From: Eledone cirrhosa
Lineage: Eukaryota
Direction of reading: 5' to 3'
DNA length: 39,722 bases
Assembly: GCA_964016885.1 (NCBI GenBank)
Contig: CAXHJY010001735.1
Coordinates: 1 to 39,722, forward strand
In this document: positions 1 through 30,702 of the stretch, one piece after another
Position numbering within the stretch: position 1 is the stretch's first letter
Layout of the letters: each line of letters starts with the position of its first letter
Position numbers and translations under genes: made by a program
Notes under the pieces: model-generated
Told to the model about the DNA's origin: nothing
Seen by the model: only the letters and a program-made list of their open reading frames with translations
Databases searched by the model: none

Positions 1-3000
1 TTTTTTATGGGGGGGGGGTCCGTTTTTTATTTGGGTGCCCCGTTTTTTTATGGGGGGGGGTCCGTTTTTTATTTGGGTAGCCCGTTTTTTATTTGGGTGC
101 CCCGTATTTTTATGGGGGGGTCCGTTTTTTATTTGGGTACCCCTTTTTTATTTGGGTGCCCCGTTTTTTTTATGGGGGGGGGGGGTCCGTTTTTTATTTG
201 GGTGCCCCGTTTTTTTATGGGGGGGGTCCGTTTTTTATTTGGGTACCCCGTTTTTTATTTGGGTGCCCCGTTTTTTTATGGGGTGGTCCGTTTTTTATTT
301 GGGTGCCCCGTTTTTTATTTGGTTACCCCGTTTTTTATTTGGGTGCCCCGTTCTTTTATGGGGGGGGGTCCGTTTTTTATTTGGGTACCCCCTTTTTTAT
401 TTGGGTGCCCCGTTTTTTTATGGGGGGGGGGTCCGTTTTTTATTTGGATACCCCGTTATTTATTTGGGTGCCCCGTTTTTTTATGGGGGGGGGTCCGTTT
501 TTTATTTGGGTGCCCCCGTTTTTTTATGGGGGCGTCCGTTTTTTATTTGGGTGCCCCGTTTTTTTTATGGGGGGGGGCCGTTTTTTATTTGGGTACCCCC
601 CCCCATAAAAAAACGGGGGCACCCAAATAAAAAACGGGGTATCCAAATAAAAAACGGACCCCCCCCATAAAAAAAACGGGGCACCCAAATAAAAAACGGG
701 GTACCCAAATAAAAAACGGACCCCCCCCCCATAAAAAAACGGGGCACCCAAATAAAAAACGGACACCCCCAGAAAAGAACGGGGGCACCCAAATAAAAAA
801 CGGACCCCCCCCATAAAAAAACGGGGCACCCAAATAAAAAACGGGGCACCCAAATAAAAAACGGGGCACCCAAATAAAAAACGGACCCCCTCCATAAAAA
901 AACGGGGGCACCCAAATAAAAAACGGGGTACCCAAATAAAAAACGGGACACCCAGATAAAAAACGGACCCCCCCATAAAAAAACGGGGCACCCAAATAAA
1001 AAACGGGGGCACCCAAATAAAAAACGGACCCCCCCCCATAAAAAAACGGGGCACCAAAATAAAAAACGAGGTATCCAAATAAAAAACGGACCCCCCCCAT
1101 AAAAATAGGGGTCACCCAAATAAAAAAACGGACCCCCCCATAAAAAACGGACCCCGCCCATAAAAAACGGGACACCCAAATAAAAAACGGGGTATCCAAA
1201 TAAAAAACAGACTCCCCCCATAAAAAAACGGGGCACCCAAAATAAAAACGGGGTATCCAAATAAAAAAACGGACCCCCCCCATAAAAAAACGGGGCACCC
1301 AAATAAAAAACGGGGTATCCAAATAAAAAACGGACCCCCTCCCCCATAAAAAAACGGGGCACCCAAATAAAAAACGGGGCACCCAAATAAAAAAACGGGG
1401 TATCCAAATAAAAAACGGACCCCCCCCATAAAAAAACGGGGCACCCAAATAAAAAACGGGGCACCCAAATAAAAAACGGACCCCCCCATAAAAAAACGGG
1501 GCACCCAAATAAAAAACGGACCCCCCCCCCATAAAAAAACCGGTCACCGAAATAAAAAACGGACCCCCCCTTAAAAAAAACGGGGCACCCAAATAAAAAA
1601 CGGGGTACCCAAATAAAAAACGGCCCCCCCCATAAAATAACGTGGCACCCAAATAAAAAACGGACCCCCCCCCCCATAAAAAGACGGGGCACCCAAATAA
1701 AAAACGGGGTATCCAAATAAAAAACGGACCCCCCCCATAAAAAAACGGGGCACCCAAATAAAAAACGGGGGTACCCAAATAAAAAACGGACCCCCCCCAT
1801 AAAAAAACGGGGCACCCAAATAAAAAACGGACCCCCCCCATAAAAAAACGGGGCACCCAAATAAAAAACGGGGCACCCAAATAAAAAACGGGGTACCCAA
1901 ATAAAAAACGGGGCACCCAAATAAAAAACGGACCCCCCCATAAAAAAACGGGGCACCCAAATAAAAAACGGACCCCCCCCCATAAAAAAACGGGGGCACC
2001 CAAATAAAAAACGGCGTATCCAAATAAAAAACGGACCCCCCCATAAAAGAACGGGGCACCCAAATAAAAAACGGACCCCGCCCATAAAAAATCGCGGCAC
2101 CCAAATAAAAACGGACCCCCCCCCATAAAAAAACGGGGCTCCCAAATAAAAAACGGACCCCCCCATAAAATAACGGGGCACCCAAATAAAAAACGGACCC
2201 CCCCCCCCATAAAAAAACGGGACACCCAAATAAAAAACGGGTTACCCAAATAAAAAAACGGGGTACCCAGATAAAAAACGGACCCCCCCCCATAAAAAAA
2301 CGGGGCACCCAAATAAAAAACGGACCCCCCCATAAAAGAACGGGGCACCCAAATAAAAAACGGGGCACCCAAATAAAAAACGGGGCACCCAAATAAAAAA
2401 CGGGGCACCCAAATAAAAAACGGGGCACCCAAATAAAAAACGGACCCCCCCCCCATAAATAAACGAGGCACCCAAATAAAAAACGGGGTACCCAAATAAA
2501 AAACGGACCCCCCCATAAAAAAAACGGGGCACCCAAATAAAAAACGGGGTATCCAAATAAAAAACGGACCCCCCCATAAAAAAACGGGGCACCCAAATAA
2601 AAAACGGGGTACCCAAATAAAAAACGGACCCTCCCATAAAAAAACGGGGCACCCAAATAAAAAACGGCCCCCCCCCCATAAAAAAAACGGGGCACCCAAA
2701 TAAAAAACGGACCCCCCCCATAAAAAAACGTGGCACCCAAATAAAAAACGGGGCACCCAAATAAAAAACGGACCACCCCATAAAAAAACGGGGCACCCAA
2801 ATAAAAAACGGACCCCCCCCATAAAAAAACGGGGCACCCAAATAAAAAACGGGGCACCCAAATAAAAAACGGGGTACCCAGATAAAAAACGGACCCCCCC
2901 ATAAAAAAACGGGGCACCCAAATAAAAAACGGGGTATCCAAATAAAAAACGGACCCCCCCCATAAAAAAACGGGGCACCCAAATAAAAAACGGACCCCCC

Positions 3001-6000
3001 CCCCATAAAAAAACGGGGCACCCAAATAAAAAATGGACCGCCCCCATAGAAAAACGGGGGACCCAAATAAAAAACGGGGCACCCAAATAAAAAACGGGGC
3101 ACCCAAATAAAAAACGGGGCACCCAAATAAAAAACGGGGCACCCAAATAAAAAACAGACCCCCTCCATAAAAAAACGGGGCACCCAAATAAAAAACGGGG
3201 TACCCAAATAAAAAACGGGGTACCCAGATAAAAAACGGAACCCCCCCATAAAAAAACGGGGCACCGAAATAAAAAACGGACCCCCCCCATAAAAAAACGG
3301 GGCACCCAAATAAAAAACGAGGTACCCAAATAAAAAACGGACCCCCCCCCCCCATAAAAAAAACGGGGCACCCAAATAAAAAACGGGGTATCCAGATAAA
3401 AAACGGACCCTCCCATAAAAAAACGGGGCACCCAAATAAAAAACGGGGTACCCAAATAAAAAACGGACCCTCCCATAAAAAAAACGGGGCACCCAAATAA
3501 AAAACGGACCCCCCCCATAAAAAAACGTGGCACCCAAATAAAAAACGGGGCACCCAAATAAAAAACGGACCACCCCATAAAAAAACGGGGCACCCAAATA
3601 AAAAACGGACCCCCCCATAAAAAAACGGGGCACCCAAATAAAAAACGGGGCACCCAAATAAAAAACGGGGTACCCAGATAAAAAACGGACCCCCCCATAA
3701 AAAAACGGGGCACCCAAATAAAAAACGGGGTATCCAAATAAAAAACGGACCCCCCCCCATAAAAAAACGGGGCACCCAAATAAAAAACGGACCCCCCCCA
3801 TAAAAAAACGGGGCACCCAAATAAAAAATGGACCGCCCCCATAGAAAAACGGGGGACCCAAATAAAAAACGGGGCACCCAAATAAAAAACGGGGCACCCA
3901 AATAAAAAACGGGGCACCCAAATAAAAAACAGACCCCCTCCATAAAAAAACGGGGCACCCAAATAAAAAACGGGGTACCCAAATAAAAAACGGGGTACCC
4001 AGATAAAAAACGGAACCCCCCCATAAAAAAACGGGGCACCGAAATAAAAAAACGGACCCCCCCCATAAAAAAAACGGGGCACCCAAATAAAAAACGGGGT
4101 ACCCAAATAAAAAACGGACCCCCCCCCATAAAAAAAACGGGGCACCCAAATAAAAAACGGGGTATCCAGATAAAAAACGGACCCCCCCATAAAAAAACGG
4201 GGCACCCAAATAAAAAACGGGTCACCCAAATAAAAAACGGGGCACCCAAATAAAAAACGGGGCACCCAAATAAAAAACGGACCCCCCCATAAAAAAACGG
4301 GGCACCCAAATAAAAAACGGAGTACCCAAATAAAAAACGGACCCCCCCATAAAAAAACGGGGCACCCAAATAAAAAACGGGGCACCCAAATAAAAAACGG
4401 GGCACCCAAATAAAAAACGGGGTACCCAAATAAAAAACGGGGCACCCCAATAAAAAACGGACCCCCCCCATAAAAAAACGGGGCACACAAATTAAAAACG
4501 GACCCCGCCATAAAAAAACGGGGCACCCAAATAAAAAACGGACCCCCCCCATAAAAAACGGTGCACCCAAATAAAAAACGGTGTACCCAAATAAAAAACG
4601 GACCCCCCATAAAAAAACGGGGCTCCCAAATAAAAAACGGACCCCCCCCCATAAAAAAACGGGGCACCCAAATAAAAAACGGGGCACCCAAATAAAAAAC
4701 GGACCCCCCCATAAAAAAACGGGGCACCCAAATAAAAAGCGGGGTACCCAAATAAAAAACGGACCCCCCCCATAAAAAAACGGGGCACCCAAATAAAAAA
4801 CGGACCCCCCCATAAAAAAACGGGGCACCCAAATAATAAACGGACCCCCCCCCATAAAAAGACGGGGCACCCAAATAAAAAACGGGGTATCCAAATAAAA
4901 AACGGGGTATCCAAATAAAAAACGGACCGCCCCCGCATAAAAAAACGGGGCACCCAAATAAAAAAACGGACCCCCCCCATAAAAAAACGGGGCACCCAAA
5001 TAAAAAACGGGGCACCCAAATAAAAAACGGAAACCCCCATAAAAAAACGGGGCACCCAAATAAAAAACGGGGTACCCAAATAAAAAACAGGGTACCCAGA
5101 TAAAAAACGGACCCCCCCATAAAAAAACGGGGCACCCAAATAAAAAACGGAACTCCCCATAAAAAAACGGGGCACCCAAATAAAAAACGGACCCCCCCCA
5201 TAAAAAAACGGGGCACCCAAATAAAAAACGGGGCACCCAAATAAAAAACGGGGCACCCAAATAAAAAACGGGGTACCCAAATAAAAAACGGGGTACCCAG
5301 ATAAAAAACGGACCCCCCCATAAAAAAACGGGGCACCCAAATAAAAAACGGGGTACCCAAATAAAAAACGGGGTACCCAGATAAAAAACGGACCCCCCCA
5401 TAAAAAAACGGGGCACCCAAATAAAAAACGGGGTATCCAAATAAAAAACGGACCCCCCATAAAAAAACGGGGCACCCAAATAAAAAACGGGGTACCCAAA
5501 TAAAAAACGGACACCCCCCATAAAAAAACGGGGCACCCAAATAAAAAACAGACCGCCCCCATAAAAAAATGGGGCACCCAAATAAAAAACGGACCCCCTC
5601 CATAAAAAAACGGGGCACCCAAATAAAAAACGGGGTACCCAGATAAAAAACGGACCCCCCCCCATAAAAAAACGGGGCACCGAAATAAAAAACGGACCCC
5701 CCCCATAAAAAAACGGGGCACCCAAATAAAAAACGGGGTACCCAAATAAAAAACGGCCCCCCCCCATAAAAAAACGGGGCACCCACATAAAAAACGGACC
5801 CCCCCATAAAAAAACGGGGCACCCAAATAAAAAACGGACCCCGTTTTTTATTTGGGTGCCCCGTTTTTTTTATGGGGGGGGTCCGTTTTTTATTTGGATA
5901 CCCCGTTTTTTATTTGGGTGCCCCGTTTTTTTACGGGGGGGTCCGTTTTTTATCTGGGTACCCCGTTTTTTATTTGGGTACCCCGTTTTTTATTTCGGTG

Positions 6001-7719
6001 CCCCGTTTTTTGATGGGGGGGTCCGTTTTTTATTTGGGTGCCCCGTTTTTTTATGGGGGGGGTCCGTTTTTTATTTGGGTACCCCGTTTTTTATTTGGGT
6101 GCCCCGTTTTTTTATGGGGGGGGGTCCGTTTTTTATTTGGGTGCCCCGTTTTTTTATGGGGGGTCCGTTTTTTATTTGGGTACCCCGTTTTTTATTTGGG
6201 TGCCCGTATTTTTATGGGGGGTCCGTTTTTTATTTGGGTGCCTCGTTTTTTATTTGGGTGCCCCGTTTTTTTATGGGGGGGGGGGTCCTTTTTTTATTTG
6301 GGTACCCCGTTTTTTATTTGGGTGCCACGTATTTTTATGGGGGTTCCGTTTTTTATTTGGGTGCCCCGTTTTTTATTTGGGTGCCCCGTTTTTTTATGGG
6401 GGTCCGTTTTTTATTTGGGTACCCCGTTTTTTATTTGGGTGCCCCGTTTTTTTTATGGGTGGGTCCGTTTTTTATTTGGGTGCCCCGTTTTTTTATGGGG
6501 GGGGTCCGTTTTTTATTTGGGTGCCCCGTTTTTTTATGGGGGTGTCCGTTTTTTATTGGGGGGGGTCCGTTTTTTATTTGGGTGCCCCGTTTTTTTATGG
6601 GGGGGGGTCCGTTTTTCATTTGGGTGCCCCGCTTTTTATTTGGGTGCCCCGCTTTTTATTTGGGTGCCCCGTTTTTTTATGGGGGGGCGTTTTTTATTTG
6701 GGTACCCCGTTTTTTATTTGGGTGCCCCGTTTTTTATTTGGGTGCCCCGTTTTTTTATGGGGGGGGGGTCCGTTTTTTATTTGGGTGCCCCGTTTTTTTA
6801 TGGGGGGGGTCCGTTTTTTATTTGGGTGCCCCGTTTTTTTATGGTGGGGTCCGTTTTTTATTTGGATACCCCGTCTTTTATTTGGGTGCCCCGTTTTTTT
6901 ATGGGGGGGGGGGTCCGTTTTTCATTTGGGTGCCCCGTTTTTTTATGGGGGGGGGTCCGTTTTTTATTTGGGTGCCCCGTTTTTTTATGGGGGGGTCCGT
7001 TTTTTATTTGGGTACCCCGTTTTTTATTTGGGTGCCCCGTTTTTTTATGGGGGGTCCGTTTTTTATTTTGGTGCCCCGTTTTTTTATGGGGGGGTCCGTT
7101 TTTTATTTGGGTACCCCGTTTTTTATTTGGGTGCCCCGTTTTTTTATTGGGGGGTCCGTTTTTTATTTGGGTGCCCCCTTTTTTTATGGGGGGGGGGTCC
7201 GTTTTTTATTTGGGTGCCCCGTTTTTTTATGGTGGGGTCCGTTTTTTATTTGGATACCCCGTCTTTTATTTGGGTGCCCCGTTTTTTTATGGGGGTTTAG
7301 TTTTTTATTTGGGTGCCCCGTTTTTTTATGGGGGGGGGGTCCGTTTTTTATTTGGGTGCCCTGTTTTTTATGGGGGGGGGGGACCGTTTTCTATTTGGGT
7401 GCCCCGTTTTTTATTTGGGTGCCCGTTTTTATATGGGGGGGGGTCCGTTTTTTATTTGGGTGCCCCGTTTTTTATGGGGGTGCCCCATTTTTTATTCGGG
7501 TGCCCCGTTTTTTATGGGGTGCCCCATTTTTTATTTGGGTGCCCTGTTTTTTTATGGGTGGTCCGTTTTTTATTTGTCTGCCCCGTTTTTTTATGGGGGG
7601 GGTCCGTTTTATATTTGGGTGCCCCGTTTTTTTATGCGGGGGGGGGGGGGTCCGTTTTTTATTTGGGTGCCTCGTTTTTTTATGCGGGGGGGGGGGGTCG
7701 TTTTTTATTTGGGTGCCTC

Positions 7720-7722
<3 letters not shown>
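1..7722. repeat. ~20-bp two-monomer satellite (ATTTGGGTGCCCCGTTTTTT / ATGGGGGGGTCCGTTTTTT) in three blocks of alternating orientation
   Basis: T/G-rich 1-~595, A/C-rich ~596-5837, T/G-rich 5841-7722; more degenerate beyond ~7300; followed by a poly(A) run at 7724-7766. Confidence 0.95.
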
Positions 7723-7767
<45 letters not shown>

Positions 7768-9539: not shown

Positions 9540-9865
9540 AATTAACAAGGCAATACGAAAAATCCTGACACACACACATTTGAAAATAAGAGTCTCAAAT
9601 GCAATAACTAATACAAGTCGATCACTATAAACAATAGAGAAAATCGGGTAAATTATCCTCGAAGATAGATAAACGGAAAGAGATGTTTATGGAGAAATGA
9701 ACCAGCTTCTCATTTTTTTTTTTAGGAGGAGTGTTTTTAGGATGTTATACTATACAGCTTTGGACTAGAGTGTAGTTGAATGTAAATAAACATTAAACGC
9801 AGAAAGTAAGATACGGGGTTCGATTCCTCGTAGGTCCTTCTACCCACATTTTTTCTCTCCAAGAG

Positions 9866-10008
9866 TACCATATTTCCCGGCGTCTTAAAAATCTACCATG
9901 CGTCCCGAAGACCGAAGGTTATTTGTTAATTTTTTTTCAAATTTTTGGTTGCCAAAATTAGGGTGCGTCCTCGAGGACGAAGCATCTTCGGCGCCGGGAA
10001 ATACGGTA
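9866..10008. mobile_element. MITE, Tc1/mariner-pogo-like TIRs (copy 1)
   Basis: TACCATATTTCCCGGCGTC ... GGCGCCGGGAAATACGGTA terminal inverted repeat with TA ends; no coding capacity. Confidence 0.75.
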
Positions 10009-10193
10009 TATGTAAATATATCGTAATAATAAATGTGAAGACTAAAATCCAAAGAGTTTCAGAAGATCCCGTTAAGGGTGAAAACAACGATTCTTTGCTT
10101 AAACTTTAATCTGTTGTTTTAATATATATATTATATCTATATATAATATATATATCTGGCTTGTATCTGCCGAAATTACCTCTTGTTGTTTTG

Positions 10194-10241
10194 ATTGCCC
10201 TGATGAGTCCTTAATAGGACGAAACATTGTCGGCTAATAAA
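10194..10241 (+). ncRNA. Minimal type I hammerhead ribozyme motif (Penelope-like style)
   Basis: GCC-CTGATGA-GTCCT-taat-AGGAC-GAAAC-att-GTC^GGC, then AATAAA: full core, 5-bp stem II, stem I GCC/GGC (extendable over a bulge), very short stem III. Confidence 0.75.
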
Positions 10242-10381
10242 AACTTTTGATGTATTAAAGGATTCTTTGTTTTACTCTCTTAATTTTTCGGCTCTGTTTA
10301 ACTGCATTGAGCTATACCTTTTACTGTCATTTCTATAATACGAAGAGGGTGTTTGACTCAAACACGCTCCAGTATTCTAAT

Positions 10382-10420
<39 letters not shown>

Positions 10421-10427
10421 GTATAAA

Positions 10428-10578
10428 TACCGTATTTTCCGGCGTCGAAGACGCTACTTTTTTCCTAAAATAAGTCAAAATTCTACCATGCGTCCTGGTG
10501 GCCGAAGGTTGTTTATTACTTTTTTTTTCAAATTTGCGTCCTCGAGGACGAAGCGTTTTCGGCGCCGGAAAATATAGT
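10428..10578. mobile_element. MITE, same family (copy 2), in the probable LOX 3' UTR
   Basis: TACCGTATTTTCCGGCGTCGAA ... TTCGGCGCCGGAAAATATAGT; shares internal CTACCATGCGTCC and GCGTCCTCGAGGACGAAGC with copy 1. Confidence 0.75.
10512..10517 (-). promoter_or_regulatory. Candidate LOX polyadenylation signal AATAAA
   Basis: First AATAAA on the minus strand after the stop codon (~143 nt downstream), inside MITE copy 2. Confidence 0.35.
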
Positions 10579-10659
10579 GATCGATTTTTTTACAATTATT
10601 TTCTACATTTCTGCATTTCAAATACTCCCTACGCTTCGATAATTTGTAGGATATATAAT

Positions 10660-29938
<19,279 letters not shown>

Positions 29939-30702
29939 TTCTGTAAAGAAAAAATAAGATGAATTGCGATTTAAAAAAAAAAAAATGTTAAACCATAGAC
30001 ACTTAAAAGGAGGCCGCTTAGAAAAGTCAGCCCAGTGTCGGTGTTGATATGGCTGTGGGCAGTGAATAAGGAGTGTTAGAGGGAATGGCTAGGGTCTAGT
30101 TTGTGGGGTTCTTTCTAAGTTCAAATTCCAACCAGTTCTACTCGCTCTTTTCTTCTTTCCAGATCAATAAAAATAGGGACCACACAAAGTATAGAATCAA
30201 GTAAGACCTTTGATGGTGTTGCCCCAGAAGATCGAAGTTCAATAACTGAAACTAGTAAAAGAATAAGAGAGAGAGAGAGAGAGAAAATGCGTGAACTAGA
30301 ATATAACTTTAGAAAAATTCAGAGCTCGCACTTATGTAGGTTTACCAGACTTCCTTCGAGGTTGCATCGCATAGGAACTCCATCTCAATTCTACTTTCGA
30401 AAAGCAGAAGAACTGCGAAACCGGTAAAGGAACCAAATAAATACATATTAAAAAAAAAAAAAAAGACTCCTGATGCATTTTCGAATCATCTTTTTTCCTT
30501 ATACTTTCACTCTTGTAGGACCCTCGTTTTTTTTTTTCATTTTGTAAAAAAACCTCACTTTCTAATATATATATAGAGAGAGAGAGAGTAATGACTAACA
30601 AGGATTTGAATTTAAATTATTGAAGTGATACGACCGTTTCGTCAAAATAACTGGAATATTTCATTCCTGTATAATAATCTCATCAGAATCGATTAAATAT
30701 AA

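Follow-up and report, generated by a model that had tools for sequence, protein, structure and literature searches.

Does the hammerhead-like motif lying antisense to a lipoxygenase (LOX) gene of Eledone cirrhosa belong to a genuine ribozyme, what kind of sequence carries it, and does it act on the gene? We have examined the complete 39,722-nucleotide stretch of DNA that contains it, which we term the window. The coordinates of the features are collected in Table 1.

A preliminary description of the DNA had reported all the core nucleotides of a minimal type I hammerhead, a perfect 5 bp stem II with G10.1-C11.1, a tiny stem III and a terminal AATAAA, and all of these are present. The motif contains CUGANGA, GAAA and UH with G10.1-C11.1, and since C17 is nucleotide 10231 the predicted cut falls between 10231 and 10232. 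Comparison with Rfam Hammerhead_1 (RF00163), which had been proposed as a check, gave a mixed outcome. Infernal cmscan (701 nt search) matched all 45 positions of the model with E = 6.7e-6, but the score of 31.7 bits is below the Rfam gathering score of 34, and the motif therefore falls outside it. A scan of the whole window at the gathering score returned no hammerheads. That score is an annotation cut-off and not a biological criterion.

Calculated pair probabilities are 0.95-1.0 for stem II and 0.90-0.92 for the GCC/GGC section of stem I. The suggested extension of stem I to ATTGCC/GGC(T)AAT stands up less well. AUU/AAU pairs with a probability of 0.11-0.16, and its outermost base is variable (A in 18, C in 14 and G in 2 of 34 related copies). 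In terms of the three helices of a type I hammerhead, stems I and II are well supported, and stem III is so only as an intermolecular duplex. The motif differs from RF00163 in its 3 bp stem I with a bulged extension, and in having no evident contact between loops I and II. The AATAAA is kept in nearly all aligned copies. A pattern search of the minus strand near the locus found no hammerhead core, which rules out a hammerhead on the antisense strand within the LOX RNA.

The sub-threshold Rfam score might suggest a chance match in AT-rich DNA. Against this, a loose hammerhead-core pattern finds two matches in the window where 0.04 are expected from 100 shuffles, and, as set out below, the motif has 1,018 exact copies and a fixed position inside a coding element. 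We therefore give chance practically no credence. Inspection by eye of the second loose-core match, at 15737, revealed no evident stem II. A 28 bp tandem array of 44 copies (window 14469-15705) contains CTGAGGA and so generates false hammerhead-core matches.

Table 1. Positions in the window of the hammerhead, the elements around it and the neighboring gene
Feature	Position	Strand	Basis
Minimal type I hammerhead (cleavage predicted)	10194-10238	+	RF00163 match; conservation in 34 ORF-selected copies
Stem I 5' strand; CUGAUGA	10194-10199; 10200-10206	+	Sequence, cmscan
Stem II, 5 bp, closed by G10.1-C11.1, 4 nt loop	10207-10220	+	Sequence, cmscan
GAA; C17; stem I 3' strand	10221-10223; 10231; 10232-10238	+	Sequence, cmscan
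Stem III, self-complementary, 3 pairs around one U; predicted dimer interface	10224-10230	+	Self-duplex energy, diversity
AATAAA, part of the element, overlapping the stem I extension; putative polyadenylation role	10236-10241	+	Sequence
5'-truncated pseudo-LTR end with 101 nt tail, Hydra-clade Penelope-like family A	10155-10385	+	Genome-wide copies, ends of intact-ORF elements
Tail between near end (~10284) and far end (~10385), inferred RT start sites	10284-10385	+	BLAST rows
GCUC/GAGC hairpin, ~6 nt past near end	10290-10313	+	Fold -7.1 kcal/mol, z -2.2
Imperfect TA run, left flank of insertion	10121-10154		Sequence
(TA)n run, right flank, typical Hydra-clade target	10385-10418		Sequence; other copies also end in (TA)n
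Family-B microcopy: inverted far tip 10024-10055, sense arm 10055-10129	10024-10129	+	Matches to L008 and L172
Damaged family-B hammerhead, A at core position 4	10055-10104	+	Within sense arm
MITE-like element 1	9866-10008		17 nt inverted ends, 94% complementary; very high contig depth
MITE-like element 2, related to element 1	10428-10579		23 nt inverted ends, 10433-10455 and 10552-10574
Lipoxygenase last coding exon with stop, outside the element	10660-10774	-	ORF list; Pfam on upstream exons

What carries the motif becomes clear from the rest of the genome. A search of the 3.0 Gb E. cirrhosa assembly with 10150-10360 gave 2,158 candidates, and the 40 of these that were scored are 99-100% identical from 10155 onward. 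The sequence common to the copies ends at 10385 and is followed by (TA)n. The genome-wide count that had been suggested for the motif found 1,018 copies of an exact 38-mer and at least 2,577 of a looser core, with none for reversed-pattern controls. Some copies extend more than 1.5 kb upstream, into an ORF, and a protein search revealed many stop-free frames of ~915 codons. From 20 loci chosen by that protein search we read the order of an intact element as hammerhead, 263 nt, an ORF of 897 amino acids, a UTR of ~1.9 kb and a second hammerhead. The unit is thus 4.5-4.9 kb long, with an ORF for a telomerase-like RT and a GIY-YIG domain between its two hammerheads; we call this family A.

Aligned with the ends of intact-ORF elements, the window fragment shows 1-3 mismatches in 231 nt, with a single mismatch in the best case; we therefore regard it as a young copy with one arm and a truncated 5' end. 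The preliminary description had considered a young Penelope-like relic, and this part of its interpretation was right; what it missed was the cluster, in which one Penelope-like end holds the motif and a second Penelope-like microcopy lies upstream. No second family-A sequence or hammerhead occurs within the window. We consider it very probable that the motif is the hammerhead of the pseudo-LTR (pLTR) of a young Hydra-clade Penelope-like element (PLE), left as a lone 231 bp end that is probably passive and without a role for LOX. Elsewhere in the genome, four family-A copies 10-12 kb apart (L023-L026, G000:C4:77.74-77.77 Mb) share one change in stem II, and represent a segmental tandem duplication.

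The 897 amino acid protein has the motifs RWR, DKT and YRDD, a CxCx5C linker and a C-terminal IVY...YIG endonuclease, with CxxC before the catalytic E, CxH after the N, and no CCHH; a single cysteine lies between IVY and YIG. The Y-YIG, R, H, E and N residues and most of the diagnostic cysteines do not vary across 76 aligned sequences from among the query and 120 listed homologs. In a structure search with an AlphaFold model (mean pLDDT 81.9) telomerase RTs took ranks 1-9, the best with E = 6.9e-10. Pfam named neither RT nor endonuclease in the query ORF, and GIY-YIG in one of 14 homologs; sequence searches of the PDB with the query ORF gave no meaningful match. A disordered insert of ~140 residues (492-629) lies between the RT thumb and the linker of the family-A protein (L061:2944-5634), and is absent from most homologs of ~700 amino acids.

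A single ORF with a telomerase-like RT and C-terminal GIY-YIG is the constitution of an EN+ PLE, and the hammerhead-bearing pLTRs, the partial tandem and inverted copies, and the tail are those of PLEs in general. The diagnostics of the Hydra clade, including (TA)n insertion, are given in section 11 of PMC8557442 (Craig et al. 2021). Like the members described there (Hydra-1_Obim, Penelope-1 to -18_HM), family A has RW(K/R) as RWR, DKT rather than DKG, CxCx5C, CxxC and CxH without CCHH, (TA)n insertion, inverted truncated arms, a tail at one end, and a sense type I hammerhead with a palindromic stem III and 1 nt loop. It is larger, at 4.5-4.9 kb compared with 'generally <3 kb', a typical size that is not strict; its protein has 897 against ~700 amino acids and its tail 101 against 30-40 nt (PMC8557442). 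On the evidence of its sequence motifs and (TA)n targets we place family A in the Hydra clade. Because the hammerhead of Hydra-1_Obim has a different sequence and its protein is clearly diverged (compared by eye), family A appears to be absent from the Hydra families listed in PMC8557442, the one relevant source on octopus Penelope hammerheads or ribozymes in the literature searched.

The preliminary description had also entertained a retrozyme relic. A retrozyme consists of non-coding tandem units that each carry a hammerhead. Metazoan non-LTR retrozymes carry type I hammerheads, related to pLTRs as is that of family A, and an origin from pLTRs has been proposed for them in the preprint bioRxiv 10.64898/2026.07.22.740005; moreover tandem hammerhead arrays of other families are present in the E. 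cirrhosa genome. The window copy, however, is single and is not non-coding by origin: on either side of the fragment the sequence leads on into a coding element, and no short-period family-A tandem exists in the loci examined. The match to an intact coding element with one mismatch refutes a retrozyme identity for this copy, to which we assign a very small residual probability. Type I hammerheads of over ten further families turned up in the 1.17 Mb of DNA fetched, in many cases nested next to family A within TA runs.

Returning to family A as a Hydra-clade PLE, its copies stop at two fixed ends. Of the first 30 exact-core loci, 22 stop at ~10284, seven at ~10385, and one runs into the ORF (BLAST rows). 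Where two inverted arms are visible, each fixed end is taken by one arm. A GCUC/GAGC hairpin lies past the near end, and full elements have a twin ~7 nt past the far end (L065:7055-7090; -7.4 kcal/mol, z -1.4). The twin hairpins are seen in an alignment of 16 family-A copies, their folding z-scores being weak alone, and GCUC/GAGC also occurs past both fixed ends in family B, described below. A stable tail hairpin lies just inside the far end (window 10338-10375; -14.6 kcal/mol, z -3.9). Reading the far end as a 5' splice site was rejected: the GTAACT of young copies is replaced in older copies by GTCACT, GTTACT or ATTACG, and GT is missing at this place from family B.

These ends resemble those of the Poseidon element PAc of Anolis carolinensis (Frangieh et al. 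2024, PMC11167929), in which two internal RT start sites delimit the tail and the endonuclease cuts AT-rich DNA. In both, two fixed ends bracket a tail, the targets are AT-rich, and the pLTR hammerhead is left uncut in inserted copies. PAc belongs to another clade and has its ends inside the ORF, whereas those of family A lie upstream of the ORF start; PAc was examined biochemically, and family A is known here from sequence and computation. By analogy with the anole element, the GIY-YIG domain would have nicked a TA run at the insertion site, and RT would have initiated internally on the RNA, at the far start site (10385), and read across the uncleaved hammerhead before halting after 231 nt.

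Is the family-A hammerhead maintained? We picked 40 loci by ORF similarity, from 100% to ~66% amino acid identity, and analyzed 34; in the other six no family 3' hammerhead lies within ~2 kb of the ORF. The mean pairwise difference amounts to 0.054 for the hammerhead, 0.017 for the CUGAUGA core and 0.006 for GAA with stem III, compared with 0.118 for the 46 nt downstream and 0.20-0.26 for the upstream UTR. The hammerhead is thus some five times more conserved than the adjacent UTR in these ORF-selected copies. The hammerheads were located with a core-based pattern, which biases the core diversity low; stem III and position 17 were left free by that pattern. Some of the signal is attributable to general conservation of the pLTR, given the likewise reduced value (0.118) just 3' of the hammerhead. 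No site of the hammerhead varies more than position 17 (C in 15, U in 18, A in one and G in none of the 34), and G is likewise absent from position 17 in the first 100 listed of the 2,577 genome-wide copies. There is almost no compensatory change inside family A. As for covarying homologs elsewhere in the genome, by eye other families in the fetched loci have altered stems I and II while keeping the core and the palindromic stem III. The low diversity and the lack of G17 indicate that selection acts on the element family. These sequence comparisons support function in active elements; they are uninformative on the window copy, whose intactness is accounted for by its youth.

How such a hammerhead might cleave is constrained by its stem III, since 3 bp with a 1 nt loop cannot close. 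In ViennaRNA calculations, which exclude tertiary contacts of the core, the family-A monomer misfolds at -10.6 kcal/mol and the active-like monomer has a probability of 1.4e-5. A double hammerhead reaches -19.1 kcal/mol, compared with -9.4 for two active-like monomers; it is not the lowest state, as two misfolded monomers have -21.2 and the cofold minimum is -24.0 kcal/mol. The self-duplex of stem III contributes -2.3 kcal/mol with a central U-U mismatch. From the palindromic stem III we predict that cleavage is dimer-only or protein-assisted. The energies agree with reports that monomers of minimal PLE hammerheads are inactive and dimers weakly active (PMC4209133; PMC6765202). The hammerheads described by Cervera and de la Pena 2014 (PMC4209133) are likewise type I with G10.1-C11.1 and a small palindromic helix III, and occur mostly as single motifs from truncated PLEs with some opposite-strand pairs; family A differs in having no extra nucleotide between A9 and G10.1. 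It is highly homogeneous, as the same paper reports for Drosophila virilis.

In the mechanism we propose, the two hammerheads of a full element, 4.5-4.9 kb apart, would pair through their palindromic stems III, and this dimer, probably helped by the protein of the element, would slowly cut tandem precursor RNA into unit lengths. Most template RNA would stay uncut or be re-ligated. Without a second copy to pair with in trans, the lone window copy would have almost no activity.

The hammerhead could instead be kept as a protein-binding or promoter-linked structure, with cleavage rare or dispensable. This concerns the family as a whole and is compatible with its identity as a PLE. Among truncated family-A copies starting at 10226-10243 there is no excess of ends at the cut site: none of 30 loci starts at 10231 or 10232, and two of 80 listed start at 10232 (by eye), in a test where the pattern recovers less than half of the junctions and TA microhomology blurs them. 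The lack of a pile-up counts against a strong role for cleavage. The anole hammerhead cleaves only with protein; in the experiments described in PMC11167929 its mutation leaves insertion in vitro unaffected, and reads ending at the cut site are absent. The success of family B (below), at 16,493 copies and with A as base 4 of its core, also favors a structural role. On the other side, position 17 is free among C, U and A and never G, in the 34 copies or the first 100 listed, which is the pattern expected of catalysis, and related families change their stems while retaining the core and palindromic stem III. We consider a purely structural role rather unlikely, though deserving of weight, and prefer slow cleavage that depends on a dimer or on protein.

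The second Penelope-like microcopy lies 140 nt upstream of the family-A motif and belongs to a different family, B. This has intact frames of 713 codons in an element of ~3.3 kb, with 36-45% amino acid identity to family A (loci L146-L185). Its hammerhead has a type I fold with an unpaired U flanking stem II on each side (Hydra-type), a longer stem III, a CUU triplet and the core CAGAAGA, i.e. U4A; stem III of the window copy further carries two G-to-A changes. Searched with base 4 left open, a 34-mer has 16,493 copies, 16,327 with A4 and 166 with other bases of mixed kinds. Where the frame is intact the motif was found at 18 of 20 loci, always with A4. A4 is also kept, with one extra base in loop III, in tandem units of ~370 nt derived from the family-B end (L119-L125), which are a candidate retrozyme. 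A heterodimer of the A and B hammerheads was rejected, their stems III not being complementary by eye.

In 40 copies anchored outside the family-B hammerhead, its stems and core vary by 0-0.04, against 0.15-0.19 in the upstream flank; it is no less variable than the 16 nt downstream (0.03). Because this set includes loci picked for non-A4, the sequence comparison suggests selection on the hammerhead. The copy ends of family B, inspected by eye for a footprint of cleavage in the first 100 of 1,294 listed, are confounded by indels and TTAA microhomology. Separately, and as an observation made without a control, many family-B arms start at the 5' strand of stem I, no more than ~10 nt before the core of the hammerhead (window 10055, L008, L149, L158, L167, L168, L175, L176 and L181). 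U4C is a known natural hammerhead variant with reduced activity (PMC3088659). We found no paper on a natural U4A hammerhead; Lunse et al. 2017, on PLE hammerhead variants, was outside the scope of the search and may list it. We advance tentatively the idea, possible but on the doubtful side, that the upstream microcopy represents an autonomous Hydra family whose U4A form, present in 99% of 16,493 copies, is catalytically active as a natural variant of the ribozyme.

The remaining question is whether the family-A copy does anything for its neighbor. The LOX gene, with an N-terminal PLAT domain, spans 10660-30088 on the minus strand (PLAT E = 2.5e-15 and Lipoxygenase E = 1.2e-5 in Pfam, two of five exon frames tested; splice sites by eye). 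The motif had been described as ~420 nt past the LOX stop, antisense and between two MITEs, and this is accurate. The stop is 10660-10662, 419 nt from 10241, and two related MITE-like elements flank the cluster. Being antisense to LOX, the motif cannot make the LOX mRNA cleave itself. Further out in the window, a 20 bp satellite occupies 1-7723, with switches of orientation near 600 and 5838. By eye, 9770-9850 includes the B-box-like GGTTCGATTCC; we take this stretch to be possibly a remnant of a tRNA-derived SINE.

Co-option offers an alternative: as the preliminary description had speculated, the copy might cleave an antisense transcript that reaches the LOX 3' end, or the pLTR fragment might start such a transcript. 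Its location on the opposite strand just past the stop and its intact core invite the idea; PLE promoters sit in pLTRs (PMC6765202), and a partner in trans could come from any of thousands of identical copies. But the core is intact because the copy is young, the window holds no partner hammerhead, and the first AATAAA on the LOX strand (10512-10517 in a hexamer scan, within MITE-like element 2) is reached before the element. A paralogous LOX last exon, 82-84% identical, at G000:C17:28.95 Mb (L112) shares that exon only and is without the insertion; no second assembly copy of the locus lacking the insertion was found. Four runs aligned to the locus, all contigs of a single study, revealed repeat depth and variants, which bear neither on expression nor on an empty insertion site. 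With 2,577 copies, or by our estimate about one per 1.2 Mb, some are expected near gene ends. Co-option is thus most improbable. We found no tie between the hammerhead and the lipoxygenase, and the insertion is likely to be passive.

Taken alone, the window motif carries little weight, as one among thousands of ends of a known kind of retrotransposon. It is the pLTR hammerhead of an apparently unlisted Hydra-clade family, of which the window copy is a likely passive stub. With its young, intact elements and clear selection on the hammerhead, family A is suited to the question of what PLE hammerheads do in vivo, and the U4A of family B sharpens that question. If our tentative reading of family B is true, A with its canonical core and B with U4A would be a matched pair in one genome for testing the part of cleavage in Penelope retrotransposition. 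If U4A cleaves, the natural repertoire of hammerhead cores would be extended; if it is inactive, a family of 16,000 copies would have spread without a working ribozyme.
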